Assembly: GCA_023898345.1 (NCBI GenBank)
Contig: CP060218.1
Coordinates: forward strand, 767,777-831,776
Reading direction: 5' to 3'
Source: Candidatus Woesearchaeota archaeon
GTDB taxonomy: Archaea; Nanobdellota; Nanobdellia; Woesearchaeales; UBA583
DNA: 64,000 nt
A model generated the notes under the pieces. The model did no database searches and was not told the DNA's origin. It saw nothing but the letters and a program-made list of their open reading frames with translations. Positions within the stretch are counted from its first letter, which is position 1. Every line of letters starts with the position of its first letter. Below, in pieces: positions 4,114 through 61,307 of the stretch. Made by a program: the position numbers and the translations under genes.

Positions 4114-4114
4114 A

Positions 4115-4519: not shown

Positions 4520-4578
4520 TCATGTTCATATTGATAAATGAACTCTAAAAAAATTATAGATGGTATGTAAAATAAAAT

Positions 4579-4761: not shown

Positions 4762-4897
4762 AATATTCTAAAATTTGGTTATTTTTAACACTTTGCAAAG
4801 ACTATTAACTTCAATTTAAGCGATTTACACTCAAAATAATGAGAGAAATATTTCAAAACAAGTCTTAGTCTTAAAATGTCAAAAAAGTCTTCAAATA

Positions 4898-5809
4898 TCA
4901 ATGTCTAATCACCTCCAACACTTTTTCATATTCTTTTACTGCAATCTCTTTTTTATTTAAATAATGAGTCATCCCAACATTTTTTGAAGTTGACCTTCCA
5001 GATATGAAGTTTGCTATTTCAATTGCAACTCCTGCTTTAACCATTAAAGTAAATGAATACTTTCTTAGATACTTTAAATGAACTATTTTCTTATTATCTT
5101 GGGTATGATCTACAAATCTATTGAAGTATGTTTTATCAAATTTACCAATATGTTCTTTTAATTCATTATATAATTCTAATGTAAAGAATAGATAATAAGA
5201 TGATTTCTGACCTCTTAAATAGAAATTATTGTAAGTAACTATGCCGTTTTCATGTATTTCTATGTTCTTTTCATCAAAATTTTCAAAGAAATGTTTAACT
5301 TCTGTTGTCCTAGCTGTTGTTTCAATATAGAATCTATATAATAAATAATGTAATCTATCATATTTAGATACTTCTTTTACAGAGTTTTTAATCTCCAAAC
5401 ATGTAGGAATATAAGTATCAATATGAACTTCATTGTGAATTTTAATTCTTCTTCGGATGTTTTCAATTATATCTAAGTCTAATATATCAAACTCTTCTAA
5501 GTAATTCAGCCATACTCTAATTGCAACTCCTCCTTGTCTTTTGTTAATTTTTTCAAGAGCAATAGCATTTTTAATCTCTTCAATGGTATTAACACTAATC
5601 TCTTCAAACAATTTAGTTAGACAATTAAAAACAGATACTGCGTAAGTTCTTGTGAACTTTTTTAAAGTATATACTTTATATTCATTTTTTGTCTTAAAGT
5701 ATATACTTTTTAATTCTATAAAATTTTGATTTTTTGGCGTAAAATTTTCTAAATTTTGAGAAATTTGCTGTTGATTAGAAATTTGTGAGGAGGCGTATTT
5801 GCCCCCTAG
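4898..5809 (-). CDS. Tyrosine recombinase / integrase (N-terminus uncertain)
   Basis: C-terminal HLKYLRKYSFT...GRS...GMTHY resembles the H-x-x-R ... Y catalytic region of tyrosine recombinases; track ORF runs on to 5980 through the tRNA, which is unlikely to be coding; no in-frame ATG after the tRNA, first TTG is much further in. Confidence 0.55.
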   Translation of the reverse strand, partial: LGGKYASSQISNQQQISQNLENFTPKNQNFIELKSIYFKTKNEYKVYTLKKFTRTYAVSVFNCLTKLFEEISVNTIEEIKNAIALEKINKRQGGVAIRVWLNYLEEFDILDLDIIENIRRRIKIHNEVHIDTYIPTCLEIKNSVKEVSKYDRLHYLLYRFYIETTARTTEVKHFFENFDEKNIEIHENGIVTYNNFYLRGQKSSYYLFFTLELYNELKEHIGKFDKTYFNRFVDHTQDNKKIVHLKYLRKYSFTLMVKAGVAIEIANFISGRSTSKNVGMTHYLNKKEIAVKEYEKVLEVIRH

Positions 5810-5812
5810 AGA

Positions 5813-5894
5813 CGCCAAGACTGGGATTTGAACCCAGAATTCCGAAGGAACTACATTAGCAGTGTAGCGCAATACCGAGTTATGCGATCTTGGC
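5813..5894 (-). tRNA. tRNA-Ser (anticodon GCU)
   Basis: Manual fold of minus strand: acceptor GCCAAGA/TCTTGGC, anticodon stem CTACA/TGTAG, loop CTGCTAA, long variable arm TTCC..GGAA, T-arm CTGGG-TTCAAAT-CCCAG, discriminator G. Confidence 0.8.
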
Positions 5895-5923
5895 ATTAGG
5901 TCTCTTTTTTTAGTCGCCGCCGG

Positions 5924-5958
5924 ATTAGCAGTGCTGCGCAATACCGAGTTATGCGACC
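5924..5958 (-). repeat. Partial duplicate of tRNA-Ser 5' half (32/35 identical to 5855-5889)
   Basis: Direct repeat attagcagtg(ct/ta)gcgcaataccgagttatgcga(c/t)c about 30 bp 5' of the tRNA on the same strand. Confidence 0.6.
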
Positions 5959-6041
5959 TCAGCTCGATGAAGATAAACAAGTAAACTTGCTATCAAAAAG
6001 TGATAAGCCAAATCTCTTTTAAAAGATTTTGCTTCTTCCCT

Positions 6042-41586: not shown

Positions 41587-41678
41587 TTTGTTGTTTGGAT
41601 CTTTTTTGCTTTAAGTTGTTTTTTCTCTACCTCACAGTCCCAACAAAAACACATAAGAGTAAGTCTTTCAAAAAAACT

Positions 41679-44261
41679 ATGTTAAAAATAGAGAAGATAA
41701 GCCCCAGCGTCAAACTTATTTCGGCTCTCGACCCAAACCTCCAAGTCTTTGACATCATCATGCATACAAAGTGTGGAAGTACATACAATTCCTACATCAT
41801 CGACGGAGGAGACGAACTTGCCCTCATTGACAGCGCCAAAGAACAGTACATTGATGAATACTTCAAAGAACTCGAGGCAATGTGCGACATAAGAAAAATA
41901 AAATATCTTATCGCGAATCACACAGAGCCAGATCACAGCGGAGAAATGGAAAAACTGCTCTCCTACATGCCATGGCTCACCATTGTCGGCACAGCAACAG
42001 CAATCTCCTTCCTCAAAGACATCACAAACAAAGACTTTACAAGTATAGAAGTAAAAGAAAACACCAGTTTGAAAGTCGGCAACAAAACACTTTCTTTTTT
42101 CATTGTCCCCTACCTTCATTGGCCAGATTCCATGTTCACATATCTTGAAGAGGAAAATCTTCTTTTTACTTGCGACGTGTTCGGAGCTCACTACCACACA
42201 ACGCAAGTCTACGACGACAAAGTAGAAAGCCAAGCTGACTATGACGAAGCATTTCGTTACTACTACGATTGTATTTTTGCTCCTTTCAAATCCTATGTTC
42301 TCAAAGCATTAAAACAACTGCACAACAAGAGTTTTGCTCTTCTTTGTCCTTCGCACGGCCCCATCATTCGCAAAAACAAAGATCTTGTACGTTCCCTCTA
42401 TTACGAGTGGTCTGTTGAAGAAGAACTTGATTTGAACTCCTGCGCCATTGTGTACACCTCCGCTTACGGTTACACAAAAGAAATGGCAGTTCTGCTTTCT
42501 GAGGAAATGCAAAAAAAAGGTTTTCGTACAAGTCTCTTTGATTTAGTTAGTGATTCCATGGAAGAGGCCATTCAAAAAACCCATAGTTCTGGCGCGCTTC
42601 TTGTAGGAAGCCCAACCATAAATTGCGATCTTGTGGAACCCATTCAAGAATTTTTACAAAAACTAAGTCCTTACAAGTGCGCGACAAAGTTAACGGGAGC
42701 CTTTGGAAGTTATGGCTGGAGTGGAGAAGCTGTTTCCATCATGGAAGCAAGACTTGCACAACTGAAAAGCGAAGTGTATCGTCCGGGCATTAAAATAAAA
42801 TTCAATCCAAACTCTCCCGATAAAGAAGCACTTGTACGAACTTATGGCGAACGCTTTGCAGAAAAACTTCATTCTTTTAACAAGCTTGCAAAAAAAGCAC
42901 AATGGACACAGTTCACTGTTGGGAAATGGCGCTGCTTAGTTTGTTCAGAAATTTTTGAGGGAGACCAACCTCCCCAAGTTTGTCCTGCCTGTGGAGCTCC
43001 ACAAGATCAGTTCATAAAAATTGAAAGTACGCAACACCAGTTTATCTCGGAGAAAGAAGAACACTTAGTTATCATCGGGGCTGGAATTGCAGGAATAAGT
43101 GCAGCACAAGGTGCCAGAAAAACAAATCCAAAAGCTCACATCACCATTATTAGTGAAGAAGAGGAAGAACCATATTACAGAATTTTACTTTCCAAAAAAA
43201 TTGGGGAGGCACTTGACGCACCACTGCAAAAAAAAGAATGGTTTGAAAAAAATAATATCTCTCTAATCCTAGGAAGAAAAGCAGAAAAAATAGATATAAA
43301 CACAAAAATAATAACACTCAACGACAAAGAAGAGCTTCCTTACACAAAGCTAATTTTGGCGATGGGCGCAGGAGCAAATTGCATTTTGCCACAGGGAAAA
43401 AATATCGACAATGTTTTTACTCTGCGAAATAAAAAAGATTTTGACAGTATTAATAAAGCACTAACAGAGAACACAGACAAACATGCTGTTGTTATCGGAG
43501 GGGGAATCCTCGGAGTCGAAATGGCACTTGGTCTTAAAAAACAAAATTATTCTGTCTGTATTGTCGAACTAGCGCCAAGACTTATGACTAGACAACTTGA
43601 TGAAACTGCTTCTCAACTTTTAGAAAAAAATCTCCGTGAACAACAAATTGAAATATTCACATCAGAGAAAATAAAACTCTTTCATACAGATGCGCAAAAC
43701 AAGCTTTGTTCTGTAGAACTGGAAAGTGGAAAGGTTCTGACGTGTTCGCTTGCAATAGAATCTTTGGGAGTTTGTCCGAACACTTTGCTTGCGATCGATG
43801 CCGGCATCACAGTACAAAGAGGAATTGTCGTTGATGAAAGAATGCAGACAAGTAAAGAAGATATTTTTGCATGCGGTGACATTGCCCAAATAAACGGAGT
43901 TTGTGTTGGATTGTGGGGCGTAGCACTTGAACAAGGCAAAGTTGCAGGGGCTTGCGCAATGGGCGATGAGAACGCTTTTTACCACCAAAAAATACTTGCA
44001 ACAACGGTTAACATTAATGGCTACCATATTTTTTCTCTTGGCGATCTGGGACAAAAATATCCTTCCTTAGAATACCAAACTCTTTCTCTAAGCGATCCGC
44101 AAAAAAAAGTTTATCGAAAGTTTTACTTCAGGGAGGACCAGTTTGTCGGCGGCATTCTTATGGGCGAGACATCCAAAGCGACGCAGCTACACATTGCACT
44201 CGAACGTAGCTCCACTATGCAAAGCTTTCTGGACGCGCATTTTCTGAACGAGAGCGAGTGA
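41679..44261 (+). CDS. Flavodiiron protein fused to rubredoxin and NAD(P)H:rubredoxin oxidoreductase domains (class F-like)
   Basis: Metallo-beta-lactamase-like HxExDH region, flavodoxin-like middle, rubredoxin CxxC...CPACG, FAD/NAD folds IIGAGIAG and VVIGGGILG; ATG 41679 preferred. Confidence 0.75.
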   Translation: MLKIEKISPSVKLISALDPNLQVFDIIMHTKCGSTYNSYIIDGGDELALIDSAKEQYIDEYFKELEAMCDIRKIKYLIANHTEPDHSGEMEKLLSYMPWLTIVGTATAISFLKDITNKDFTSIEVKENTSLKVGNKTLSFFIVPYLHWPDSMFTYLEEENLLFTCDVFGAHYHTTQVYDDKVESQADYDEAFRYYYDCIFAPFKSYVLKALKQLHNKSFALLCPSHGPIIRKNKDLVRSLYYEWSVEEELDLNSCAIVYTSAYGYTKEMAVLLSEEMQKKGFRTSLFDLVSDSMEEAIQKTHSSGALLVGSPTINCDLVEPIQEFLQKLSPYKCATKLTGAFGSYGWSGEAVSIMEARLAQLKSEVYRPGIKIKFNPNSPDKEALVRTYGERFAEKLHSFNKLAKKAQWTQFTVGKWRCLVCSEIFEGDQPPQVCPACGAPQDQFIKIESTQHQFISEKEEHLVIIGAGIAGISAAQGARKTNPKAHITIISEEEEEPYYRILLSKKIGEALDAPLQKKEWFEKNNISLILGRKAEKIDINTKIITLNDKEELPYTKLILAMGAGANCILPQGKNIDNVFTLRNKKDFDSINKALTENTDKHAVVIGGGILGVEMALGLKKQNYSVCIVELAPRLMTRQLDETASQLLEKNLREQQIEIFTSEKIKLFHTDAQNKLCSVELESGKVLTCSLAIESLGVCPNTLLAIDAGITVQRGIVVDERMQTSKEDIFACGDIAQINGVCVGLWGVALEQGKVAGACAMGDENAFYHQKILATTVNINGYHIFSLGDLGQKYPSLEYQTLSLSDPQKKVYRKFYFREDQFVGGILMGETSKATQLHIALERSSTMQSFLDAHFLNESE

Positions 44262-44369
44262 GCTTTCTTCAATGAAATACCAGACCAAGAAAGCTTTGAA
44301 AAAATTATAGCTTAATCTTTATAGATTTAAACCTAAACTATATAAAATATTCGGGCCCACAAAAAGAAA

Positions 44370-47300
44370 GTGAAAAAAATCTTACTTTTCTTAATCACAA
44401 CCCTCTGTACATTAACAAGCATTTTTGGAATCAGCACCCTTACAAGTTGCCAAACAATAAATGAATCAGGAGAATACATTCTTGAAAATACAAGCACCTA
44501 TTTTTCAGGAGAAGACAAGCCTTGTTTTACTATTAACTCCAATAACATTTCTTTAGACTGTAATGGAGAAACAATCTTAGGAAGTAACCTTAACTCAGGA
44601 ATTCTCATTAATGCTGTACAAAATATTACGATTAACAGTTGTAAAATTTCAAACTTCACGAAAGGACTTACACTCCAAAATTCAAATTATTCCACCATTA
44701 ATCGTGTAGAGAGCTCTAACACAGATACAGGAATTTTCATCATAAATTCAAACGAAATACTCATTTCTCGTTCCACCATAAAAAAAACAAACACCTCTCT
44801 TCAGATAGACAACACCACATCACTACTCATTCTTGATTTTTTTACTCAAGAAATAAAGAAGGGATTAGCTATCTCAAACTCAATTTCTCCCTTGATAGAG
44901 AATTTTGTCGTTCTAGAAGCCGACAAAGGAGCAACAATAACAAATACTAAAAATCTTTCACTCAAGTTCTTTATTGCTGAGAAAACAGGAACTGGACTGT
45001 ATGTCGAAAATGTAACTCTCTCAAATTTCTCTTCTGTATTTTTCGAAAATATTTCAAACATTGCATTCATAGTAAATAAATCCTCTAAAAATCTTCTCAA
45101 TTACAGTATCAGTTATGCAGCAAATAATGGTTTTTTATTCCAGAATTCAAACAACAACACTATTACAAATATTTCATTTTTAGAAACTTCTAATCTTAGC
45201 TGGACAGTTTATTTTTCAAATTCGGCAGATAATATTTTTTTTGCAAACGATTTACAAACAAAAAATAAAATTATTCGTACTAATAATGAATCTCAAAATA
45301 TTTGGACTTATTCAGTAAACGGGACATCTTATGGAAACTATTGGGACGATTTTCTTTGTTTCTCTTATGAAAATGAGAGCAATGCAAAAGCATGTACAAA
45401 TCCCTCTGTTTATTTAATCTCAACTTCAGAACAAGACATTGCCCCACAAACTAAACAAAATAAAAAGAATGCGTTTTTACTTACTGAATACAGTCGGCAT
45501 CCTTTGAACTACAATAAAAGCCTCGAAAGTATTTTTGATTCTATAACTTACCAAAATTCAGCTTCTTTGGCTTATAATACATGGAATAGTTTAAGTGGAA
45601 ATTTAAGTGGAGAAATAAAGCAGAATCTTACTTTAGATAATGGCAAGTTTACCATTCTAAATACTTCTGAAAAAATCCAAAAGGGACTATACTACAATGC
45701 ATCAGAAGAATTTCTGTCATACAAAATAGAAATCTCAAATCTTAACTTTACTAAAAATTTTGAAAATGAAAATAAAGCAAAAATAAATATTATTGGAACT
45801 CCAATAATGCTGCTTGGTAAACAATATGCCATCTTACAATTTAAGAATCAAAGTTCTTTTTTCAATTCCCTTACAATTGGAGAAGCCAAAGGAAAAATTT
45901 TCATTACAGAAAACTCAATTCAAACTCTAAACCTTAAAAACTCCCAAGTAAATATAAGCCTGATTACGGTATCAGAAAAAAATAAAGTACTTGCAAAAAT
46001 TAATGAGCAGTATATTTTTTTCAACCTCTATGAAACTTTAGAAATCGACAATTATTATTTCACACTAGCATCACTCCGTTTAGCTGAAACCGAGAATGAA
46101 AAAACAGTGGCAGAGTTTATTATTTCAGACAAAATCATAGAATTAAACGATTCTCAATACGTTAAAGTAAATGGTTACGAACTTAATGAAACAAATTTTG
46201 AAACTAATTATATTGTTACTTCAAATTTTTCAGAGGAACTTTCCCAAATTGATATAAAATATTATGTAAAAAATGAAACCTTCCTCTCTGAAAATCAAAG
46301 CTTAGAAGACATTGTTTTTTCCTCCTTTGCAATTAGCTATGAAGGAATAAACCCTCTAACATACTCGACTTTAGACATAACAACAACAAATTCCACAATC
46401 AATTTTAATGGGACATTCAAAAATAATATACAAATCCCAAATGAAATCACCTTAATAACAAACAGTTCAGAAAACTCTCCTCTCTATTTAGGAACAAGTT
46501 CAAAACGAGTATATCATCAAGGATCAGATTTAATAAATATACCTCTCCTATTTCAAGAAAATTCATTAAGGGGTATAGAATATCTTGGAGGCACCACTAT
46601 TGGATTTAATATCACAACACTACCAACAGACATTCCAGAAAACCTCATCCTATTTAGACTCTACGATCAAGACGAATTTTATCTGTACAAAATAAATTCC
46701 ATTAACACTACAAACAAAACGATAAATTTTAGTGAAATTTTGACTTCCCGCTCAACAACATTAAACATAGGTGAACTTGAAAATCAACTCATCCCTAACC
46801 TCAGTCCTGGAACAATTTTCAATAACTCTGACACATTCTTTCTTAATCTTTCAAATTTAGGAAATCCAGATTTGCCACTCACTAATTTTTTCTATGTGAA
46901 TTTTCTTGAATCTGAAACTGAAAACTTTAATTCAACAACAAAAACAGCCTTTCTTAACTTTAGTTATGACTTAAATAAGATTAGCCTAGATGAAAACTCC
47001 CCGAAACCAGATGACTTTTTTCTCTCTTTTTTAAGAGCAGAAAATTCTTCTGAGAATATTACTTGTTATATTGAAAATCCAAATCTTTTCCTCTTTCAGA
47101 AAAAATTTAACAACGGAACAGAATATGAATCTTACATTGATAACTACGGCACAGAGATTTTTATTAACTCATTAAAAAAAGATACTGTAAGACTTAACAT
47201 CCCAGAAAAAGAAGTTCAAGCAGTAGTGACCCTGTATTTTGGGGAAGAAAACACAACACAAGTAAAAGAAATCTTTCCTACTCCTAATACTTCGCTACTC

Positions 47301-49607
47301 AGTTCAAACAAAGTAAATACTTCTTGGTATCTCCTGTGTAAAGAAAATTGTACTCTTGATTCCTTCGCCATCTTTGTAATAGAAGAAAATCTCACCAATA
47401 CTCCTCGAAACTTAAATATTTTTTATTCTGCAAATCAACTTTCACCAAAGCTCCTAGAAATTTCTTTTGATACCTCCTATCTTCAGGGTTATCATTACAT
47501 TATTGCCAACCTTAATTTAAGCAATGGAAGTCAAGAAGTATTTACAGAATATTATTTTAATACTTATGAATATAATCTCACAAGTCTAAAAAACAAGATT
47601 CTTTCAGACGAAAATTTACTTCTAAATGTCTCTTTTGTTTATGAGCCAGTTAAAGAGATTTTCAATCCAGATAATAGAACATATTTTCTTTTATCATACT
47701 ATAACCTAACAACTCAAAATTATGAACATGTTAAATTTGGAAGTTATGAAATTCCCATAAGCAAATCCGGGGTTTATAATTTCACCCTTTTAGGATATCC
47801 TGATTCCTATCCAAAGCTAGGAAACTATTCTCTTTCCCTATTTACAAAAGATGCAAACCAAAAAGAAAAGCTTCAGTTTTCTGTGTATGAAAGAGCACCA
47901 AAAATAACTTCCATATCATTAGCAAATAATTCAGTAATCTCCTCTTCAAATCGAGGAGTCAAACTCATCCTCGGTTTTGATTCAAAAGTTTACAATCTCA
48001 GTTATCAAAATCTTGTTACGGGAAAAAACTATACTTTCTATAGCGAGAACCCCACTGAAATATGGAATATTAGTTTACTGTCAAACATAGGGGTGAATGT
48101 TCTAAATTTAACATTTGCGAATAAATATGGCCTCAAAAATTCCACCGTCCTAAATTACACACTAGTTTTAAATTTAAATGGAAGCAGTAATGATTCAGAT
48201 GGAGATGGAATTAATAACTCCGACGACAAAGTTTTTGGGAATAACTCAAACATTTATACAAATATAGAAAACCTTTCCTTACGAATAAACAATAGTGAAA
48301 ATATCAGCAAGATATTTAATTCTTCTTTAAACATAAGCCTATTTCGAGAAAATAGAAAAATTATAGAATTTGAAAAGAATTTTGCTAATGCTACAATAAA
48401 TTTAACAGAACTTGTAATAAGAGACACCAGAGAAGATAATCACTCCAGACTACTCATTTCAGGAATTGAACTCGAAGATAAAACAAAAAATCTCTATTTC
48501 GATTTACTAGGCGATACTGGCAAATTTGCATCTCTTTGCATAAAAGATGAAGACATTGAAGACTTCTCCGAAATGTCAATAAACTGTACCGGTTCAAATG
48601 AACTATATATTGCAGAAATCCCTTCGATAGTTGGAAACTATACCATTTCATACATAAATGCTTCAAATTCAACTGTTGAAATAACTGGTTTGTCTCACAG
48701 TGCTGTCAGCCAAGTTTGTACTGAGAACTGGACATATTCGGTTTGGTCTCCTTGCACAAACACTGTTCAAACACGAACAGCCACAGATTCAAACGCATGT
48801 GGTACAACAAACTCGCGAGAAAACTTAACACAAAGCTGTTCAGAAAGCAGTTCTGGAGGAGGAGGTACAAGCAGTTCTTCAAGTTCTCAAAAAAAAGAAA
48901 CTCCAGAGGATTCTAGTCAAAATGTAGAAAAAAATATGTTAAATCTCCCACCTAAATTTCAAGAACACTTTCAACTTTTAGTAAATGAAAATTCAAATCT
49001 TAATAAGAACTTAACAGGAATCAAAAAAATAACAATAAAAGAGAAGTCCTCAAATAAAACTATTCTCGAATTTGAGTTTAATTTTTCTTCAAGATTTCTT
49101 AATCTAAGCACAATAGAAATCCAGAAAGGAAAGCAAAGAGACAAAAACTACATAATAATTAAGGGCATAGAGTTATTCGGAGAAACAAAGATTCTTCACT
49201 TAAAAAGAAACAAAAACTCCTCTTTTGTTTGCATAAAAGATGAAGAGATTTCCTCCATATCAGAAATTTCTGAACAATGTGATGAAAAAAGTGAGTATTT
49301 TCTTCCCTGTGATTCTAGAGAATATGGAGGATATATGTGTAGAATAGAGACAGAAGAGTTTGTCATCTCAGGTTTACGACATAGTGCTGTACTTGAGAAA
49401 GAAAACCCAATAATAACCACAGAAGAAAAGGCAATTCAAGAAAAACAAATAGAAGTAAACAAAACAGTAACAGATCTTACTCCTGAAGTTGATAAAGTAG
49501 AGGATAAATCTCGAAAAATGCAATTAATCTTGTATTTAATTGGGGGAAGTATTCTGACTATTGGATTACTTGTAGTAATAATTTTACTCATCGTTAGAAA
49601 AAAATAA
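44370..49607 (+). CDS. Giant surface protein (1745 aa): signal peptide, parallel beta-helix-like repeats, C-terminal TM anchor
   Basis: N-terminal signal, repeated N.T/S-rich beta-helix-like segments, internal duplicated domain, C-terminal hydrophobic helix then RKK. Confidence 0.6.
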   Translation: MKKILLFLITTLCTLTSIFGISTLTSCQTINESGEYILENTSTYFSGEDKPCFTINSNNISLDCNGETILGSNLNSGILINAVQNITINSCKISNFTKGLTLQNSNYSTINRVESSNTDTGIFIINSNEILISRSTIKKTNTSLQIDNTTSLLILDFFTQEIKKGLAISNSISPLIENFVVLEADKGATITNTKNLSLKFFIAEKTGTGLYVENVTLSNFSSVFFENISNIAFIVNKSSKNLLNYSISYAANNGFLFQNSNNNTITNISFLETSNLSWTVYFSNSADNIFFANDLQTKNKIIRTNNESQNIWTYSVNGTSYGNYWDDFLCFSYENESNAKACTNPSVYLISTSEQDIAPQTKQNKKNAFLLTEYSRHPLNYNKSLESIFDSITYQNSASLAYNTWNSLSGNLSGEIKQNLTLDNGKFTILNTSEKIQKGLYYNASEEFLSYKIEISNLNFTKNFENENKAKINIIGTPIMLLGKQYAILQFKNQSSFFNSLTIGEAKGKIFITENSIQTLNLKNSQVNISLITVSEKNKVLAKINEQYIFFNLYETLEIDNYYFTLASLRLAETENEKTVAEFIISDKIIELNDSQYVKVNGYELNETNFETNYIVTSNFSEELSQIDIKYYVKNETFLSENQSLEDIVFSSFAISYEGINPLTYSTLDITTTNSTINFNGTFKNNIQIPNEITLITNSSENSPLYLGTSSKRVYHQGSDLINIPLLFQENSLRGIEYLGGTTIGFNITTLPTDIPENLILFRLYDQDEFYLYKINSINTTNKTINFSEILTSRSTTLNIGELENQLIPNLSPGTIFNNSDTFFLNLSNLGNPDLPLTNFFYVNFLESETENFNSTTKTAFLNFSYDLNKISLDENSPKPDDFFLSFLRAENSSENITCYIENPNLFLFQKKFNNGTEYESYIDNYGTEIFINSLKKDTVRLNIPEKEVQAVVTLYFGEENTTQVKEIFPTPNTSLLSSNKVNTSWYLLCKENCTLDSFAIFVIEENLTNTPRNLNIFYSANQLSPKLLEISFDTSYLQGYHYIIANLNLSNGSQEVFTEYYFNTYEYNLTSLKNKILSDENLLLNVSFVYEPVKEIFNPDNRTYFLLSYYNLTTQNYEHVKFGSYEIPISKSGVYNFTLLGYPDSYPKLGNYSLSLFTKDANQKEKLQFSVYERAPKITSISLANNSVISSSNRGVKLILGFDSKVYNLSYQNLVTGKNYTFYSENPTEIWNISLLSNIGVNVLNLTFANKYGLKNSTVLNYTLVLNLNGSSNDSDGDGINNSDDKVFGNNSNIYTNIENLSLRINNSENISKIFNSSLNISLFRENRKIIEFEKNFANATINLTELVIRDTREDNHSRLLISGIELEDKTKNLYFDLLGDTGKFASLCIKDEDIEDFSEMSINCTGSNELYIAEIPSIVGNYTISYINASNSTVEITGLSHSAVSQVCTENWTYSVWSPCTNTVQTRTATDSNACGTTNSRENLTQSCSESSSGGGGTSSSSSSQKKETPEDSSQNVEKNMLNLPPKFQEHFQLLVNENSNLNKNLTGIKKITIKEKSSNKTILEFEFNFSSRFLNLSTIEIQKGKQRDKNYIIIKGIELFGETKILHLKRNKNSSFVCIKDEEISSISEISEQCDEKSEYFLPCDSREYGGYMCRIETEEFVISGLRHSAVLEKENPIITTEEKAIQEKQIEVNKTVTDLTPEVDKVEDKSRKMQLILYLIGGSILTIGLLVVIILLIVRKK

Positions 49608-53057: not shown

Positions 53058-56000
53058 ATGCAAGAAAAAAATGTAAAACCTCAAAAGCAAAAAATAAAGA
53101 ATACTGTTCTCTCACTCTTTCTCCTTCTCTTTACAAACTGCCTCTTTTTGAGTACGGATGTTTTTTCCACCCATCTCAAAAATGATCTTCCTTATACGAT
53201 TGAGATTTTGGATTTGGGCCAATCTTCAACTTCTCCAATAGAAAAAATCAAACTTACTCAAAATGCTTCTACACTCCTCACATCAGGAAATGCATATCTT
53301 GTACTGCAAACTAGTACAGATAAATCTTCCTTTTGGATGCAAATCCCAAGCGAACTTTCAAGTTCTGCCATAAAAACAACTTACCTCAGACCTTACGAAC
53401 AAGGAAGTCCAAAACTCCTCTCTTCGGTTTGTCAGGCAGAGGCAACACTACAAGAAACGATAAGTACTCTCTCTTCTGATAGTATTATTACGTATACAGC
53501 TTATGCTAATTTTGAAACAAATACAGAACTTGAACAAAGATTAGCTCAATTACAAACAAACTACAAAACTGCGATTGAGAACAATATGTACATGAAAGTC
53601 TTTGCGTATTTAGAGATTACAATAAAAGATGCTGAGAGTGGCCATGAACTGAATAAACGATATCTTCTTCCAACAAAAAGTACGACAGATGGAACTTACT
53701 TCTACAATGCTCAAGTTGAAAATAGCCCGACAAATCTCTATGGAACGTTTGCCCAATTTCAAGATCTTAGCACTTCCACTCACTTTGCTTTTTTCAAGAA
53801 TATTTCTTTAATGAACAATGCGAGAATTCCTTATCAATTACTTAAGGAAGAAAGTTCTCCAAAAACGTTTTCGTTTTCTCTTGCTGAACTCAATCCGTCT
53901 CTCCTTTGGAAAAATAATTCTGTCTACGACCTTACTTTACACCTTATCCCCATAGATGGAAAGTGTGACTTTAATGAAAATGGGATCCTTGAAGAGAATA
54001 GTGAATTCATGGTAACAAGTCTTACTACTGCCACAATTTATCCTTTAAGTAATTCCGATCCTTCCCCCTATAGAAAAATAAAAGTTCTAGGAGAAGGAAA
54101 CATAGCATCCTCCCTTATTGCAAAAAGTCATGAGTGTGGTGATACTCTTTGTACAACATTTCTCTCAACAACTGGAGCTGGTAAAGAGGGGGAATCGTAC
54201 ATTTTAACTGGCATTACTCCTTTTGAATGGACAGCACCGGCAAACAAGGCTCTTTCCTTTACGGCACCAAACAGAAGAGTTTTCTTTTCAGGTCCTTTTA
54301 ATATGAAACTTACATATAATGACGCCAGTGGACAAAGCTACTATCTCCAAAATCTCACTCCTCGTTATCTTACTCCCCAAACTGTACAAAGAATAATTGA
54401 TAGTAAAAAAGACGAACAAAAATATATGAATCTTTTTTTAGGAAAGCAGGCATCAGCGTTTTCTAATTTTGATCTTTTCTTAGACACTTGTTCAGCGCAC
54501 ATCATGGATGAAAGTTTTGATCCAACTACTCATATTCTTACCATAGACGTTCTTAGTAGTCTTGAAGCTTTGAAGAACCCTTGGAATTTCAAGGATATAG
54601 CAGGCTATGAAGATTTTTCAGAATATTACGACATGAAAATTCTTTCTTTCCTAAAGATCTCTAATCCTAGTACGGGTGAGCTAACGTATCTTGCGGCTCA
54701 GGACACCAGCAGCCAGGACTATGCGTATTCACAAGGCGGAGTTGCCGGTACAGACAAGCAATTGGAAACCCTGTTCGGATCGGAATTTCTTCTTCTTAAG
54801 AATAAAATTGCATCATCAGTAGGAACTTACAAGGTTACTAAGGTTAGTGATATGACAACAAGCATTCAGTTTGATCTTTCACCTCTTTATGAGGCTGCGT
54901 TTCTTCCTGAACTGGAGACCCCCCAAATTGAAATTTATGCAATTCCTGTAGATGGAAAATGTGACTTTGATGAGAACGGCCTCCTTGAAGGAACTGAATC
55001 AAAATTAAGTTCTTGGACCATAGAATCTTCTCTGCCTCTTGGCGGCGTACTTGGAACTGAACAAACGCCTATTGAAGTAAAGAAACTTCCTAGAGGGTAT
55101 TCACTGTGGACCACTACGGTAAATGAAGAGACTGCCCAAGAATTAGTCTTTAACAATAAAAAAAATGAAAAAAGACGTTTTGTTCTTCTGTCGAACGGGT
55201 CTCTCTATTTTAAGGATAGGAATGATGAACTCCACTTCATTGCGTTCTCTTCCTTTGTCCCTGTTGAAGCAAATATTTCCATTAACTATAAAGAACTAGT
55301 TGCTGACGGAAGTGAGGAGTTTCTCACGGATCCTAGTATAAATCCCGAAACAAAAGCACCTCTTTACCTAAAAGAAGATACCATATTGAAAATGAATCTT
55401 GTCACTCAGTTTAGAAATAAAGAAGACGCTTTGGAAAAAGTTAACAAGACTCTTACTCTTATGAACTTCTTGGATATTGAAAAAAATCTTACGTACATTG
55501 AAAGCACAAATAGAACACGAGTACTTATTTCAGTAAAAAATGTTCCTCTTTCTTATAGAGAAAATTTAACGATATATGTTGTTCTTCCAAAAGAGGATTT
55601 GCCAAGTTTAGAAAAACTTACTTTGCTTACTAACTCTAAACACTTTTTTGTAAAAGATAAAGACCCTATTATTGGATGGCAGTTTAATTTTAGTGATGAA
55701 AATGAATCGGTCGGATTTGAACTCGAAGGGAATGCCAGTACGGGCACAGTTATTGTGACACAAGACCCTGTTATTTACAATGAAGGAAACCTCCTCATTA
55801 ACTACAGACAAGAACAGTGTAATCCTGATGAAGCTTATCTTTTTGATATCAATGACCTCATTGACTCTCCTGTAAACAGACCGCAAAGTTCGGATCTCTA
55901 CCATATTTGTGTTGGACATACTTCGCACTATTTAACAAATCAAACGCTTAGTTCAGTTCTCAATCTCTTTAATATGACTACGGCTGCGACAGCAAATCTT

Positions 56001-56849
56001 TCTATAACTGGATTTTTTCCGAGTTTCACAATCAACCTTTCAGATCAAACTGACCCTTTTACAACATGGAGTTTTTCCATTGGCAGTCTTAATCCGGGTG
56101 GGTATTCTTGCCTTGGTTCGCTTGAAAACACTGCTAACTCTCTCTTTGGCGATTGTGAGTATACGGAAAATAGAGTGTGGATAAAGCTCAATACGGATGA
56201 TAAATCTCCTCAAACAACAATCAGCATTTCTTCACCGGGCGGCATTATTGAGGCAACACTTAATGCTAGCGATCTCCCAAATCCTGGTGCTTCTGGTGTT
56301 AAGGGAATTTATTATTGCGTGGACGAGCTTGGAGTCTGTAATCCTGATAACATTAGTTCTTTTTCAGCAGGAGAAAATATCACGTTTTCTCTGACGTGTT
56401 CAGGAATTAGCGGCTGCACAAAATATGTTCGTTTCTTTGCAGAAGATAATAAGGGAAATAAGGAAGCTCTTCAAACTGAGACTGTCACAATTTTGGACAA
56501 GGGCTCGAAATGTGAGGCAGATTGTACTGCAAAACCTACACCAAATCGATACCTCAAAGAATGTAATGGCGTTAGTGGATGCAGCTATTATCCTTTTGCT
56601 CCAAATGGTGTTCCGGACGCTGGAGTGTACGTTGCAAATGCCTGCCATTTCCTAACTAAAGGAAGTTATGCTTCATACAATGCTAGCCATGATATTTTGT
56701 GCCCGAATGGACCGGTTATTGCAAAACGTCTTACGAATGAAACTGTTGATACGAAAGAGAGCACTTGTGAACACATCGTTAAAGATAGTTATTTGGTTCT
56801 TGTCAATGGAGAAAAAGTTGAGATGAGTATTCTTGTCTGCCTTTCTTAA
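53058..56849 (+). CDS. Large secreted protein (1263 aa) with internal duplicated domain and Cys-rich C-terminus
   Basis: Signal peptide; repeat IP(I/V)DGKCDF(N/D)ENG(I/L)LE occurs twice. Confidence 0.55.
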   Translation: MQEKNVKPQKQKIKNTVLSLFLLLFTNCLFLSTDVFSTHLKNDLPYTIEILDLGQSSTSPIEKIKLTQNASTLLTSGNAYLVLQTSTDKSSFWMQIPSELSSSAIKTTYLRPYEQGSPKLLSSVCQAEATLQETISTLSSDSIITYTAYANFETNTELEQRLAQLQTNYKTAIENNMYMKVFAYLEITIKDAESGHELNKRYLLPTKSTTDGTYFYNAQVENSPTNLYGTFAQFQDLSTSTHFAFFKNISLMNNARIPYQLLKEESSPKTFSFSLAELNPSLLWKNNSVYDLTLHLIPIDGKCDFNENGILEENSEFMVTSLTTATIYPLSNSDPSPYRKIKVLGEGNIASSLIAKSHECGDTLCTTFLSTTGAGKEGESYILTGITPFEWTAPANKALSFTAPNRRVFFSGPFNMKLTYNDASGQSYYLQNLTPRYLTPQTVQRIIDSKKDEQKYMNLFLGKQASAFSNFDLFLDTCSAHIMDESFDPTTHILTIDVLSSLEALKNPWNFKDIAGYEDFSEYYDMKILSFLKISNPSTGELTYLAAQDTSSQDYAYSQGGVAGTDKQLETLFGSEFLLLKNKIASSVGTYKVTKVSDMTTSIQFDLSPLYEAAFLPELETPQIEIYAIPVDGKCDFDENGLLEGTESKLSSWTIESSLPLGGVLGTEQTPIEVKKLPRGYSLWTTTVNEETAQELVFNNKKNEKRRFVLLSNGSLYFKDRNDELHFIAFSSFVPVEANISINYKELVADGSEEFLTDPSINPETKAPLYLKEDTILKMNLVTQFRNKEDALEKVNKTLTLMNFLDIEKNLTYIESTNRTRVLISVKNVPLSYRENLTIYVVLPKEDLPSLEKLTLLTNSKHFFVKDKDPIIGWQFNFSDENESVGFELEGNASTGTVIVTQDPVIYNEGNLLINYRQEQCNPDEAYLFDINDLIDSPVNRPQSSDLYHICVGHTSHYLTNQTLSSVLNLFNMTTAATANLSITGFFPSFTINLSDQTDPFTTWSFSIGSLNPGGYSCLGSLENTANSLFGDCEYTENRVWIKLNTDDKSPQTTISISSPGGIIEATLNASDLPNPGASGVKGIYYCVDELGVCNPDNISSFSAGENITFSLTCSGISGCTKYVRFFAEDNKGNKEALQTETVTILDKGSKCEADCTAKPTPNRYLKECNGVSGCSYYPFAPNGVPDAGVYVANACHFLTKGSYASYNASHDILCPNGPVIAKRLTNETVDTKESTCEHIVKDSYLVLVNGEKVEMSILVCLS

Positions 56850-58401: not shown

Positions 58402-58942
58402 TTTTTATTTTAACTTCATCCTTTCGGACAAACAATAAGAAGTACAAGATCTAAACTCGCATCAACACGGGTATCATCGCCAGTTTTGAATTGTATTCTT
58501 TGGAAAAGAAACAAATGGAAGTTTATAAATTTCACGCCTTACGACCAAAACAAAGCCCAGAAGAAAAAACTACAAAAATAGGGCACCTAGGTCTCTTTCA
58601 GAAATTTCGGCACTTTGACATGTCATTATTAAAATGTTTAAAGTATCGTTCGAAAGAAATCCGTGCTGTCTTTAGGCTGAGGATGAATTGAATGATAATT
58701 TGTACAACAATCTTGGTATACTCATTTGAAACTCCGTAGAATCCCCTTCTTTTAAGCTGAGAAGTTTGAAGTTTTCTAGCACTTCAATCAATTTTAAAAG
58801 TACAGAGGATTTACAAAAGACTTATCCTTCATAAATATTTTCTAGATTAACCCTGAGACTTGCCAAGGTAAGACCAAAACTGTAACTTTTGAAACTCTTA
58901 GGCAGTCCGTGGACATACCACAATCGAGCAATGTAACTGTTA

Positions 58943-59065
58943 CTTACGAGCAGCGAAAGCCATTGTTCGTGTTCGAGTTAGAAGGACCATTGTTCAAGTT
59001 CAGAGCAAAGGCACCCGCGTTTGCACCATTGTTCCAATTGCCCCCGGACAGGAAAACACCCTTTG
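58943..59065 (-). repeat. DGR template repeat (TR)
   Basis: 123-bp match to 59971-60093; 17 of 19 differences are at TR adenines on the minus strand; TR reads KGVFLSGGNWNNGANAGAFALNLNNGPSNSNTNNGFRCS-stop. Confidence 0.8.
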
Positions 59066-59106
59066 GCTTTTGTATTTGTTTTGATCAGGAATTCCACTTC
59101 CTTTTC

Positions 59107-59481
59107 TTAATATAAATTTGAGGTATACTTCTTTAGTAATCCTCCCAATAACTTACCGAGTAGTTCTGATTTCTCAAGCATTAATAGATATTGATTAAAT
59201 GGCAGAAAATGCAAATCCTTTGCTATCCTAAGAAGAAGTTTAAATTTGTCAAAAAGATAACTTATTTTCCGTAACTGAGAACTCTTATCTTTTTGGTTTA
59301 GTCTTGTAAATTTATCGAGTATGATTAACATTTCTAAAGCTGTTTCATCAATACTCTGCCTCAATGTAAATTTTTCACTCTTAGGGAACCTTGCAAGCGA
59401 AGGATACAAGTTTAGATAAAGATTGTACACTTCATGATAAAGTAAAAAACCATCATCTTTCTTACCACAATTATTTTCCAT
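59107..59481 (-). CDS. Avd-like accessory protein (four-helix-bundle type)
   Basis: 124 aa, size and position between VR and TR; LYP..FPK..LRQ pattern resembles Avd family; similarity judged by eye. Confidence 0.5.
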   Translation of the reverse strand: MENNCGKKDDGFLLYHEVYNLYLNLYPSLARFPKSEKFTLRQSIDETALEMLIILDKFTRLNQKDKSSQLRKISYLFDKFKLLLRIAKDLHFLPFNQYLLMLEKSELLGKLLGGLLKKYTSNLY

Positions 59482-59836
59482 TTTTGTTGTCAGGTTGTTC
59501 CAATTTTCTTATTAGGCCATTCATGTATTTTATACTGTCCTCAAGAGTATTTGAATAATTTTCTTTGAGTATGTTCAAGTCTTTCAAAGTCGATAATTCA
59601 ATTTGAAGTTGTGATAGCAAAATCCTCACCTTGTTGTATATTTGTAACTTTCCTTTCAGAGACCAGTAATTATATCCTGCATTTAAATCGGGGAAAATCT
59701 CTATAACATGAGAGTAAGCTTTTTCGATTAATACTTTATGCCCCGTACTATTTACTCTCAAAGCATCCAATTCTTGAATTATCTTCAAGAAGTTTGGAAA
59801 ATATTCTCGATATATTGGCAAATCAAAAGCATTCAT
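59471..59836 (-). CDS. Hypothetical DGR-associated accessory protein (121 aa)
   Basis: Overlaps the Avd-like ORF by 11 nt, lies between target gene and TR. Confidence 0.35.
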   Translation of the reverse strand: MNAFDLPIYREYFPNFLKIIQELDALRVNSTGHKVLIEKAYSHVIEIFPDLNAGYNYWSLKGKLQIYNKVRILLSQLQIELSTLKDLNILKENYSNTLEDSIKYMNGLIRKLEQPDNKNGK

Positions 59837-59856
59837 TTTTCAGTATAAATTTTTGC

Positions 59857-59903
59857 GAACATGCTTCGCATGTTCTCATCCCTGGGGCGGCATTTAGCCG
59901 CCC
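59857..59903 (-). promoter_or_regulatory. Two perfect hairpins just 3' of the VR (GAACATGC-TTC-GCATGTTC and GGGCGGC-ATTTA-GCCGCCC)
   Basis: Stems read directly from sequence at 59857-59875 and 59885-59903; a GC-only stem stands out in this AT-rich DNA. Confidence 0.4.
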
Positions 59904-59962
59904 GCCAGAACTCCAGAGTACTAGAGTGCCTGAACTCTAAGTTACCATCATTCGTACAATGC

Positions 59963-61303
59963 TCATCGTGCAAAGGAGCAGCGAAAGCCATAGTCCGTGC
60001 TCGAGTGAGAAGGACCATTGTCCAAGCGCAGAGCAAAGGCCCCCGCGCGCGCACCAGAGTCCCAAGCGCCCCCGGACAGGAAAACACCCTTTGACGCACA
60101 ATATCCAGTACAAAAATCGGGATACTCATTCACATTATTATACGCACCCAAAATGTCGTAACCATCGTAATATCTCCCCATTCCTTGATTCGCATTCCAT
60201 CCATTTGAAGGAAGCTTCAAAGTGGGAACAAGACTTGCAACCTTGCCTGTGCCGTCATTGCTATGGTAACTCATCCATTGCTGGTCTCCTCCATGATATC
60301 TGTATGGTGAACCAAGACTCTCATTTGCATAGACCCAAGCGTCAACCCATTCCCAGACATTGCCTGCAAAGTCCCAGAGTACTTCTCCGTTTGACAAGTT
60401 CAAAGTTCTTCTTTGTCCTGCACATGCCCTTCCACTTGTTGTGTCATCACCAGCTACAAAGTTGTTATACGAACCATCACAAGAACTCAGACTATCTCCT
60501 GTCCCAGAGTAGCCATTTCCGTCGTCAGTGTCAGCAGCAAGTCTGCTTGAGGGACTGTTGTCGTTGTGCCCAGAGTACAAGAAACCAGTGCCAACGACAG
60601 AGGAGTTCCAGTTGCTTGCGACAAACTCAACATTGTGTGCAATCGTCAGCCTCTCTTCTTCCGTCATCAAATGAAAGCCAGAACCCAAACTCTCACACTC
60701 TACCTTTGCTGCGTTCCACGTAATCGAAGCCCAAGGTAAACTAGCAGCTTGCGATGTCGCAACACCCCCAACATTCTTTGCTTCGTACTTCATCACACAA
60801 AAATTGTGTGTGCCGAGTTCAGCATTTCCGGGAACGACAACATAGCCGTCCGGACATGGGTTCTCGTACACGTAAGAATTCACATACTCCGTCTTTGAAT
60901 AAATCCTGCCATCCGTCACAACGACAATCTCATTCTTCCCTTCGTTGGCGCAGTCACTCATAGGCAAGACATTCAAAGAATTGTTTGTCAAACCAGAAAC
61001 AAAGCAATCATTTCCGTTAATAGAAACGCTTTGGATTTTAGCATTTCCCTTCACAAAAAGAGTTCCGCCAGACAGACCTTCAACAGAGAAAGAGCCAGAA
61101 GAACTTTGTGTGTCGACATGTGAAAGTGTAGAACTAGAAAAAGATTGGTACCAGGTTTGAAATCCGAGTGCCGCCAGAATAGCAACGACAATCAGCAAGA
61201 CACTAGCGACAACAGGAGAAATAGCTTTTTTCGAAGAGAGACACGAAGAAGACATCCTAAAATTAGACGAGACAAGTTTTGGGGAAAGCTTAGTTCTGTT
61301 CAT
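59963..61303 (-). CDS. DGR target protein: N-terminal TM anchor, C-terminal C-type-lectin/FGE-like variable domain
   Basis: ATG at 61303; TM segment VVASVLLIVVAILAALG; C-terminus ...NVWEWVDAW...GGAWDSGARAGAFALRLDNGPSHSSTDYGFRCSFAR; VR is the last 41 codons. Confidence 0.8.
   Translation of the reverse strand: MNRTKLSPKLVSSNFRMSSSCLSSKKAISPVVASVLLIVVAILAALGFQTWYQSFSSSTLSHVDTQSSSGSFSVEGLSGGTLFVKGNAKIQSVSINGNDCFVSGLTNNSLNVLPMSDCANEGKNEIVVVTDGRIYSKTEYVNSYVYENPCPDGYVVVPGNAELGTHNFCVMKYEAKNVGGVATSQAASLPWASITWNAAKVECESLGSGFHLMTEEERLTIAHNVEFVASNWNSSVVGTGFLYSGHNDNSPSSRLAADTDDGNGYSGTGDSLSSCDGSYNNFVAGDDTTSGRACAGQRRTLNLSNGEVLWDFAGNVWEWVDAWVYANESLGSPYRYHGGDQQWMSYHSNDGTGKVASLVPTLKLPSNGWNANQGMGRYYDGYDILGAYNNVNEYPDFCTGYCASKGVFLSGGAWDSGARAGAFALRLDNGPSHSSTDYGFRCSFAR
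59971..60093 (-). repeat. DGR variable repeat (VR) at the 3' end of the target gene
   Basis: Aligned to TR by hand; all 11 AAY codons of TR are substituted in VR. Confidence 0.8.
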
Positions 61304-61307
61304 TTTT

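Follow-up and report, generated by a model that had tools for sequence, protein, structure and literature searches.

The open reading frame at positions 44,370 to 49,607 of the window, by which we mean the whole 64,000-nucleotide stretch of archaeal DNA that was analysed, encodes a giant protein that we regard, with moderate confidence, as a membrane-tethered, S-layer-associated glycan-binding spike or adhesin and not as the lattice protein itself. The original prediction of an S-layer or adhesin-like cell-surface protein holds up and is now supported by homology as well as by composition. Against S-layer membership stands the lack of an anchor domain of the S_layer_C or 9FSA type, the only hallmark by which that family is defined in sequence. 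As read from the sequence, the order outward from the membrane is stalk, knot, linker and second stalk, followed by a spacer, an S-layer-body module and a beta-helix tip. The features are as follows, with positions on the window and residues (aa) of the encoded protein:

44338..44349 (+), TATA-box-like A/T-rich element CTATATAAAATA, about 27 nt upstream of the GTG, read off the sequence
44370..49607 (+), complete open reading frame, GTG start, 1745 aa plus stop codon
44370..44444 (+), signal sequence, aa 1-25, MKK and then a hydrophobic stretch of 18 residues (Kyte-Doolittle >1.6)
44448..45389 (+), right-handed parallel beta-helix forming the head, aa 27-340, with some 10 coils of 22 residues each, from Pfam and periodicity
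45462..47264 (+), all-beta module, aa 365-965 (about 600 aa), a homolog of the central body in a family of ~820-aa S-layer-type proteins
47265..48179 (+), beta-rich lineage-specific spacer, aa 966-1270, with a full-length counterpart in the ortholog P0016 only
48192..48227 (+), Asp-rich loop DSDGDGINNSDD, preceding the stalk domain, read off the sequence
48234..48716 (+), stalk domain copy 1, aa 1289-1449, a beta domain (alignments A1 and A3)
48717..48839 (+), Cys/Trp knot, aa 1450-1490, CTENW..W..C....Q.R...D.N.CGT......Q.C (alignment A5)
48840..48932 (+), Ser/Gly-rich flexible linker, aa 1491-1521, read off the sequence, with Gly/Ser runs at the same place in homologs
48933..49397 (+), stalk domain copy 2, aa 1522-1676, all 4 cysteines kept (C1621, C1637, C1647, C1657)
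49524..49604 (+), transmembrane (TM) helix, aa 1719-1742, and cytoplasmic RKK tail, aa 1743-1745, with hydropathy up to 2.94 and the stop codon directly after RKK

The protein is deposited in GenBank as USN43539.1 ('hypothetical protein H6500_04040', Candidatus Woesearchaeota archaeon), and several MAGs and Logan assemblies hold identical or near-identical copies, the strain variants differing by 2-4 residues. GTG was taken as the start because the next in-frame Met lies hundreds of residues downstream, and there is no second long open reading frame at 44370-49607. The TATA-box-like element suggests a leaderless or near-leaderless archaeal transcript; a promoter and terminator scan at the gene, run with bacterial models that are not applicable to an archaeon, returned nothing. 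The GC content of the gene is 0.30-0.32 as against 0.36-0.40 in its neighbourhood, and richness in Asn, Ile and Lys accounts for part of this low value.

The link to the S-layer is made by the module at aa 365-965. A profile HMM of the ~820-aa family, built from 27 members without the giant protein or P0016, matches this region at E=1.8e-76 (246 bits) over HMM positions 89-714 of 843, and an exhaustive HMMER search gave 42 library matches to the module, 27 of them at E<=1e-10, with identities of 23-29%. It was this exhaustive search that found the S-layer relatives, a word-indexed homology search having returned 3 proteins only. Pfam S_layer_C (PF05124) is present in 21 of the 27 family members, and the ~820-aa profile matches PDB 9FSA in two pieces, at profile positions 37-70 and 730-815 (E=8.3e-5). 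The structure 9FSA represents the S-layer anchor/dimerisation domain of Methanococcus voltae (M. voltae), formed by aa 24-75 plus 484-576 (PMC11410804). PF05124 has no match in the giant protein, scanned whole or in segments, and the 9FSA-matching segments have no counterpart there. Since these segments flank the shared region, the module sits where the lattice body would, and by positional analogy with the M. voltae S-layer protein it may be lattice-forming; homology to the M. voltae S-layer body itself was not detected (no PF05123 match, and nothing significant in PDB and Foldseek searches).

Structure prediction, which had been proposed as a check, returned all-beta folds of extracellular type, and not a cytoplasmic fold, for the parts modelled, namely the module and the stalk. 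The AF2 model of the module has pLDDT values mostly of 80-95 over aa 374-960, and a Foldseek comparison of the 944-aa model with PDB yielded TM<=0.1, with only generic FN3/Ig arrays matched at partial length. P0018 carries two modules in tandem without the S_layer_C-matching terminal segments, the full HMM covering only positions 87-711, and such an arrangement marks the ~600-aa module as a portable unit. Searches with the module alignment found 3 loci in genome contigs and 1 in metagenome contigs, all of the ~820-aa type; in the 64-kb window there is no canonical ~820-aa S-layer gene.

The beta-helix-like repeats that had been attributed to the protein are real for aa ~27-340, about 17% of the chain or its N-terminal sixth, whereas the remainder is non-repetitive and multi-domain. 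A search with domain models, also proposed at the outset, matched Pfam Beta_helix (PF13229, 37.4 bits, cut-off 25.9) and NosD (PF05048, 28.8 bits, cut-off 23.6) on aa 1-410, in addition to the S-layer-body homology obtained with the family HMM. Both Pfam matches arise only when aa 1-410 are scanned alone; the whole protein gives no match in Pfam and NCBIfam scans, which appears to be an effect of scanning a full-length, compositionally biased chain and not true absence. Hydrophobic autocorrelation has its maxima at 22 and 44 residues within aa 56-310 only and lacks them in aa 365-1284, and between aa 100 and 280 anchor motifs recur every 22 residues or so. The head is closed by Cys-containing caps (N-cap C27, C52, C64 and C91; C-cap C330 and C342), of which the N-cap motif 'C..I...G.Y.L' is common to P0002, P0003 and P0016, and in P0016 the NosD model scores E=3e-15. 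Sequence searches of PDB, whether with the full chain or with just the head, found nothing meaningful and no close solved relative of the head.

Both ends of the chain agree with the signal peptide and the C-terminal TM anchor with basic tail of the original prediction, which hydropathy places at aa 1-25 and at aa 1719-1742 followed by RKK. A comparable N-terminus is seen in the ortholog P0016, again leading into the 'CQTI..G.Y' cap, and the C-terminal ending is shared by P0016, P0002, P0004, P0005, P0007, P0008 and others, some with longer cytoplasmic tails. The protein is thus predicted, from these two ends, to be a type-I membrane protein on the cell surface of the Woesearchaeota archaeon, which belongs to the very small, symbiotic-type DPANN/Nanoarchaeota. 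Other modes of attachment were considered and rejected: the candidate lipobox 'LTSC' (aa 24-27) was ruled out because the Cys-led motif is internal in P0002 (at about residue 665) and repeated in P0003, so that its Cys is the beta-helix N-cap, and PGF-CTERM/archaeosortase processing was dismissed with no PGF/PEF-like motif before aa 1719 and no NCBIfam match. No conserved sorting motif precedes the C-terminal TM helix in the homologs that share the C-terminal region.

The abundance of N-x-S/T sequons noted earlier amounts to 92 occurrences, compared with 42.0 +/- 5.2 expected and a maximum of 59 in 1000 shuffles of the protein's own sequence. The reversed motif S/T-x-N occurs only 46 times, and therefore the excess, about two-fold, is directional and not a mere result of the 12.3% Asn content. 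None of the other open reading frames of the window has a comparable excess. The protein is probably heavily glycosylated, to judge from these counts, and each of its extracellular domains has an even number of cysteines. At 30 of the 92 sequon Asn positions P0016 has Asp or Glu, and this apparent swap between acidic residues and sequons makes the pair a good case in which to study the adaptation of archaeal surfaces to different habitats.

Near the C-terminus, the internal duplication claimed earlier was recovered by BLASTP, with aa 1300-1446 aligning to aa 1532-1674 at 30% identity (E=3e-10); the A3 HMM matches both stalk copies (E=4e-81 and 6e-60), but these values are circular and no independent evidence, since the A3 alignment includes both copies. 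The motifs CIKDE[ED]I and GL[SR]HS are invariant in the stalk domain (alignments A1 and A3), copy 1 keeps 2 of the 4 family cysteines, and its AF2 model is all-beta with a pLDDT of 87.7 and a pTM of 0.81. No relative of the stalk domain was found in Pfam, PDB or BFVD, the best Foldseek E-values against PDB and BFVD being 0.027-0.044. The knot between the two copies belongs to a 6-Cys module, here in a 4-Cys form, Cys2 and Cys4 being jointly lost in the giant protein, P0016 and P0002. It has no Pfam match (14 knot sequences, E<=10) and no PDB match by knot profile. A thrombospondin type-1 repeat (TSR) was tried for the knot and rejected, with no match to TSP_1 or a solved TSR; the hints in this direction were non-significant (spondin, E=0.16; Unc5A by Foldseek, E=0.027, TM 0.14). 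The Asp-rich loop ahead of the stalk resembles the calcium-binding motif D-x-D-x-D-G and may bind calcium, and Asp-rich repeats likewise precede the stalk domain in P0004, P0008, P0011 and P0016.

This C-terminal assembly recurs under quite different proteins. The segment aa 1283-1490 is 39% identical to P0002 (E=5e-35), in which stalk, knot and TM helix lie under an S8 peptidase and a beta-helix; P0004 and P0005, of about 360 aa, consist of little beyond the cassette plus a short N-terminal stretch; P0007, P0008 and P0010 carry the stalk domain beneath other N-terminal regions, and P0012-P0015 have only the Cys/Trp knot in common with it. We infer from these contexts that the stalk-knot-TM cassette would be a previously undescribed, generic display device of Nanoarchaeota proteins. 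The spacer that separates the cassette from the module has, besides P0016, two short and weak partial matches, P0046 and P0056, and its AF2 model (aa 966-1270) is of low confidence, there being two informative sequences only.

Taken together, a working scheme can be proposed for a spike or adhesin of this kind. The signal sequence would export the chain, and the C-terminal helix with RKK would hold it in the membrane; the stalk cassette could then bridge the space between membrane and S-layer, while the S-layer-body module would lie in or against the lattice of a canonical S-layer protein. The glycosylated beta-helix head would point outward, where it may bind, and possibly cleave, glycans on a partner cell or substrate. 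A more specific version, which we offer only as a tentative possibility, is that of a 'plug-in' subunit, whose body module co-assembles with the canonical ~820-aa S-layer protein, replaces a normal subunit and rivets the lattice to the membrane with a glycosylated receptor-binding head outside. If this version is true, genome-reduced DPANN archaea would have a modular way to add host-attachment devices to the S-layer, and the stalk and Cys/Trp knot would constitute a new membrane-proximal domain family and a general surface-display cassette of Nanoarchaeota.

It is unlikely, in our view, that the protein is instead the principal S-layer protein, with the body forming the lattice, its own TM helix replacing the split anchor and the beta-helix decorating every subunit. 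The body module is indeed common to it and to S-layer-type proteins, the gene is highly conserved among strains (2-4 substitutions), and a C-terminal TM anchor together with heavy N-glycosylation is described for many archaeal S-layer proteins (bioRxiv 10.1101/2024.05.28.596244; PMC5744192). The absence of a canonical S-layer gene from the window points the same way but means little, as 64 kb is about 4% of the genome. Set against this, the architecture is very rare: P0016 is the one full-length ortholog, with the whole architecture kept at 39.8% identity, and a library of 1.84 billion representatives holds 2 clusters of it versus about 40 of the ~820-aa type, a rarity more in keeping with an accessory than with an essential wall protein. 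The cassette also occurs in clear non-lattice proteins (among them P0002 with its S8 protease, and P0004 and P0005 of ~360 aa), and a GC content of 0.30-0.32, below that of the neighbourhood, is unlike that of a core, highly expressed gene.

The beta-helix/CASH fold is common to pectate lyases and many glycosidases, and the protein could on that ground be mainly a tethered enzyme, a beta-helix lyase or glycosidase acting on the host glycan coat or on S-layer glycans, with the rest of the chain as a long arm. The head does match PF13229 and PF05048, the relative P0002 bears a genuine hydrolase (the S8 peptidase) on the same scaffold, and the same idea was proposed for the pectin-lyase-like proteins of Nanobdella (bioRxiv 10.1101/2023.10.27.564410). 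We nevertheless consider a mainly enzymatic role quite improbable, given that only the generic Beta_helix and NosD models match and no catalytic family model does, and that sequence searches found no solved enzymatic relative. Moreover, beta-helix surface proteins often have no role beyond structure or adhesion. An enzymatic role of this sort overlaps with the spike or adhesin reading without excluding it.

The genomic context was also considered, since a diversity-generating retroelement (DGR) with a clear TR/VR pair lies close to the gene. In a repeat search of 24-64 kb of the window, the sequences at 58921-59065 and 59949-60093 were the sole such pair found, and the VR at 59949-60093 lies 10.3 kb downstream, in agreement with the distance of 10 kb stated earlier. 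A DGR-associated or hypervariable surface receptor coupled to this retroelement is nonetheless exceedingly improbable. The gene contains no TR-like repeat, and seven unrelated open reading frames (two of them ribosomal-protein-sized) and a tRNA gene lie in between; its strain variants differ at just 2-4 positions without an A-directed pattern, from which it follows that the protein is not a diversified target, and in the neighbourhood of P0016 (10 kb fetched on each side) the called genes gave no RT-family Pfam match. The nearness of the DGR is thus one of proximity only, the data weighing strongly against a functional link. The immediate neighbours, a flavodiiron-rubredoxin-NADH oxidoreductase fusion and NDK upstream, and a 764-aa cytoplasmic protein without known family, a 280-aa open reading frame and a tRNA-Arg downstream, suggest by their annotations no functional tie to an envelope protein, and P0016 has wholly different neighbours; no operon-level inference can be drawn.

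Among the closest known systems are the S-layer proteins of the Methanococcales/Thermococcales type and their ~820-aa DPANN relatives (PF05124; M. voltae Q50833, 9FSA), to whose central body the module at aa 365-965 is homologous and which, like the giant protein, are secreted, all-beta envelope proteins. The giant protein differs in lacking both terminal segments that form the S_layer_C/9FSA anchor-dimerisation domain; what it has in their place is the beta-helix head, the spacer of 300 aa, the double stalk and the TM helix. It is also rich in Asn and sequons, whereas most of the ~820-aa proteins are acidic (18-25% Asp+Glu, with a few exceptions) and poor in sequons. With the CASH/NosD beta-helix domains of archaeal and bacterial surface proteins (PF13229, PF05048) the head shares 22-residue coils and scores above threshold in both models, but the assignment is to a generic fold only, and neither NosFY/NosZ partners nor a catalytic signature is present. 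The SlaB protein of Sulfolobales, which holds the SlaA lattice, follows the same logic of a C-terminal TM helix and an elongated extracellular stalk from membrane to lattice, but the two resemble each other in neither sequence nor fold; models of SlaB and of coiled coils give no match, and the stalk of the giant protein is made of beta domains.

Within DPANN archaea, the SPEARE proteins of Nanohaloarchaeota, of 5,000-9,400 aa, combine a Sec signal with a long Ig/FN3-rich ectodomain and have a proposed role in host interaction (PMC10266531). Both they and the giant protein are membrane-anchored DPANN proteins; SPEARE proteins are defined by a VirB4/TraG-like ATPase domain and a length of >5,000 aa (PMC10266531), whereas the present protein is 5 times smaller and has no ATPase domain. 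The downstream 764-aa open reading frame has no ATPase family match, no secretion ATPase is adjacent, and no shared domains were detected.

Little is known of the means by which DPANN archaea attach to their hosts and exploit them, and none of their S-layer proteins has been determined by experiment (bioRxiv 10.1101/2023.10.27.564410). Two of the blocks described here, the portable ~600-aa body module and the stalk-knot-TM cassette, were unannotated and have no Pfam, NCBIfam or PDB counterpart, and both could improve the annotation of many 'hypothetical' surface proteins in Nanoarchaeota genomes. In Nanobdella aerobiophila, a DPANN archaeon grown in culture, pectin-lyase-fold proteins of 908-1320 aa with 36-52 sequons were reported, as were S-layer-like proteins with a C-terminal TM helix, and host contact and anchoring were proposed for them (bioRxiv 10.1101/2023.10.27.564410). 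The giant protein can be likened to these by description: the Nanobdella proteins are likewise large (0.9-1.3 kaa) and secreted, combine a parallel beta-helix with beta-sandwich domains, carry sequons by the tens and in some cases end in a C-terminal TM helix. In Nanobdella, however, separate genes encode the beta-helix proteins and the S-layer-like proteins with TM anchors, whereas here head, body and anchor lie on one chain. In our view the protein offers a concrete, testable architecture: one chain joins a head of glycan-binding type, a body module of S-layer type and a membrane anchor, three parts that usually sit on different proteins.

The giant gene (44370-49607, plus strand) is an uninterrupted reading frame of 1745 codons with a GTG start, and so many sense codons without a break at about 31% G+C make a chance ORF impossible. 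Its product is identical to GenBank USN43539.1, annotated 'hypothetical protein H6500_04040' in a Candidatus Woesearchaeota MAG, and the neighbouring HisRS and NDK, as well as the two ORFs downstream, carry consecutive accessions in the same GenBank record. By its gene content, which includes a Hef-associated nuclease and housekeeping genes of archaeal type, the window is archaeal. Near-identical copies of the giant, differing in only 2-4 residues, occur in other MAGs and Logan assemblies.

The original prediction of an exported, anchored and sequon-rich protein was borne out. At the N-terminus MKK is followed by an 18-residue hydrophobic stretch, the signal peptide, and the C-terminal TM anchor (aa 1719-1742) is followed by the basic tail RKK and the stop; the protein has no other hydrophobic segments. 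The N-x-S/T sequons number 92, compared with 42.0 ± 5.2 (maximum 59) across 1000 shuffles, and since the reversed motif S/T-x-N occurs only 46 times, the enrichment is directional and not a by-product of the 12.3% Asn content. None of the other ORFs of the window has a comparable excess. Sequon density per 100 residues is 5-8 from the head through the first copy of the stalk domain, 2.7 in the second copy and 1.5 near the membrane, a gradient consistent with a head-outward, stalk-to-membrane orientation, and the even cysteine number in each domain of the mature protein, with C899 as the sole exception, fits an extracellular location. The predicted beta-helix repeats are genuine but confined to aa ~27-340: when the first 410 residues were scanned alone, the Pfam models Beta_helix and NosD both exceeded their gathering scores, with 37.4 and 28.8 bits, and a 22/44-residue period of hydrophobic residues is found only in this part. 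The full-length protein gave no match in Pfam and NCBIfam.

While a word-indexed homology search returned few relatives, exhaustive HMMER with aa 341-1284 recovered 42. Secreted, mostly acidic proteins of ~820 aa align to giant aa ~375-965, and an HMM of this family, built from 27 members with the giant and its ortholog left out, matched giant aa 365-965 with E=1.8e-76, covering only HMM positions 89-714 of 843. Pfam S_layer_C (PF05124) is matched in 21 of the 27 members. PDB 9FSA also aligned with the family profile, the match being split between profile positions 37-70 and 730-815 (E=8.3e-5); it is a structure of the 'anchor' dimerisation domain of the Methanococcus voltae S-layer protein, engineered from residues 24-75 and 484-576 (PMC11410804). 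Given that these matches lie at both ends of the profile, the termini of the ~820-aa proteins together form the anchor domain, and the intervening ~600 residues, the part that the giant shares, correspond in position to the M. voltae lattice body. A survey preprint places Nanoarchaeota and class I methanogen S-layer proteins in one orthologous class (10.1101/2024.05.28.596244), which is consistent with this homology. AlphaFold2 with the family alignment gave an all-beta multi-domain body for aa 374-960 (block pLDDT mostly 80-95); for aa 960-1284, with only two informative sequences, pLDDT was below 60.

P0018, a 1424-aa relative from Logan, carries two tandem copies of the module, at aa 22-617 and 632-1214, which the family HMM matches with E about 1e-155 apiece, but has no terminal segments that match S_layer_C, and thereby shows the S-layer body module to be a portable, mobile building block. 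The ~820-aa S-layer-type genes turned up in one 'Candidatus Nanoarchaeia' MAG (L004) and in two MAGs among the GTDB genome records (L003, L005) that bear the title 'uncultured Methanosarcinales archaeon'. For the latter two this means either mislabelling or contamination of the bins, or a family that extends beyond DPANN.

The last ~470 residues of the giant form a cassette that is also present in other Nanoarchaeota proteins and contains the predicted C-terminal duplication, recovered here as aa 1300-1446 against 1532-1674 (30% identity, E=3e-10).

Parts of the C-terminal stalk-knot-TM cassette
Asp-rich loop, D-x-D-x-D-G-like
Beta (stalk) domain, ~160 residues, with invariant CIKDE[ED]I and GL[SR]HS
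Cys/Trp knot, 41 residues, C..W.C..W..C....Q.R.C.D.N.CG…Q.C (alignment A5)
Gly/Ser linker
Second copy of the beta domain, in the giant, its ortholog P0016 and the relative P0002
TM helix and basic tail

P0002 places an S8 peptidase and a beta-helix atop the same cassette, P0004 and P0005 consist of the cassette plus a short N-terminal stretch and little else, and the member P0011 is annotated Candidatus Nanoarchaeia. An AF2 model of aa 1270-1500 is all-beta (pLDDT 87.7, pTM 0.81) and had no significant Foldseek match in PDB and BFVD; neither the stalk domain nor the knot matched Pfam, NCBIfam or PDB sequences. In the giant, P0016 and P0002 alike, Cys3 and Cys4 of the first stalk copy are both absent, as are Cys2 and Cys4 of the knot, coupled losses that would be expected if each pair makes a disulfide.

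The full-length ortholog P0016 (1824 aa; locus L002, 10001-15475) is 39.8% identical to the giant over 1637 aligned positions and follows it part for part: a signal sequence and NosD beta-helix come first, then the middle region and the Asp-rich loop, and finally the knot between two stalk domains and the TM helix, to which P0016 adds a cytoplasmic tail of ~130 aa. The two genes lie in unrelated genomic neighbourhoods. Asp and Glu make up 20% of P0016 and 11% of the giant; P0016 has 34 sequons where 29 are expected, thus no excess, and the giant has 92. In 30 of these 92 the position of the sequon Asn is occupied in P0016 by an acidic residue, Asp or Glu, while 21 sequons are common to both proteins, which suggests that acidic residues and sequons are two interchangeable means of ectodomain hydrophilicity.

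Sequence and homology establish the signals for export and membrane anchoring, the order of the modules, the S-layer-body homology of the core, reuse of the cassette under different heads and the directional sequon excess, and the predicted S-layer- or adhesin-like cell-surface reading is supported by the signals, the sequon excess and the body homology. We propose that the cassette would act as a stalk bridging the membrane and the S-layer, that the body module may associate with the S-layer lattice, and that the beta-helix head, of a carbohydrate-binding/sugar-hydrolase fold class, would face outward and bind, possibly cleave, glycans of partner cells. The main rival, that the giant anchors itself and serves as the S-layer protein of this organism, would agree with the lack of a canonical S-layer gene copy within the 64-kb window, but we consider it less likely: the architecture is rare (2 clusters vs about 40 of the ~820-aa type) and the cassette is also found on clearly non-lattice proteins, both of which tilt towards an accessory role for the giant.

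The ORF directly upstream of the giant gene (41595-44261, plus strand) joins three modules in a single chain of 888 aa: a flavodiiron module (ODP/metallo-beta-lactamase and flavodoxin), a rubredoxin-like domain and a module of the NAD(P)H:rubredoxin-oxidoreductase type. The product looks like a self-contained O2/NO-detoxifying enzyme. A candidate second surface protein, 3.5 kb downstream, is encoded at 53058-56849 (plus strand; 1263 aa, GenBank USN43542.1, hypothetical). It begins with a signal anchor, is rich in Cys in its C-terminal third and has an internally duplicated stretch, 'IP[IV]DGKCDF[ND]ENG[IL]LE', at 53946-53994 and 54942-54990; it matched nothing in Pfam and NCBIfam. Positions 1-6000 of the window, a possible island with a 1074-aa ORF (889-4113) and tRNA-Ser (5811-5895), have a G+C of 0.24-0.28 against 0.35-0.40 elsewhere; G+C is likewise low in the giant gene (0.30-0.32).

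The DGR retroelement noted 10 kb from the giant is real and lies downstream, and no tie between it and the giant gene was found. Its layout (58921-62533, minus strand) is unusual. An 856-aa ORF (59963-62533, minus strand) contains RVT_1 (aa 64-278) and, at its C-terminal end, the variable repeat (VR, 59949-60093); it is probably the RT gene running on into the target gene with no stop between them. The template repeat (TR) is the copy at 58921-59065, with two ~120-aa ORFs (59471-59836 and 59107-59481) between the repeats. In the ~110-nt core, read on the minus strand, all mismatches are A in TR and non-A in VR. Within the 856-aa ORF, the stretch that separates the RT domain from the VR-bearing part contains a perfect tandem array of the 13-nt unit TCTGAACCCTGTC (61307-61483, about 14 copies).

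Among known systems, the Methanococcales-type S-layer family is closest by sequence, via its DPANN ~820-aa members; as the giant is without the S_layer_C/anchor domain that defines this family, it is not filed as a member. SPEARE-type giants are unrelated, the protein being five times smaller and without an ATPase domain. Sulfolobales SlaB is comparable in function. The giant is a variant of an already known kind of DPANN surface protein; what is new is the chimeric chain joining a beta-helix head, an S-layer body module and an anchor cassette, together with the recognition of two modules that carried no annotation.
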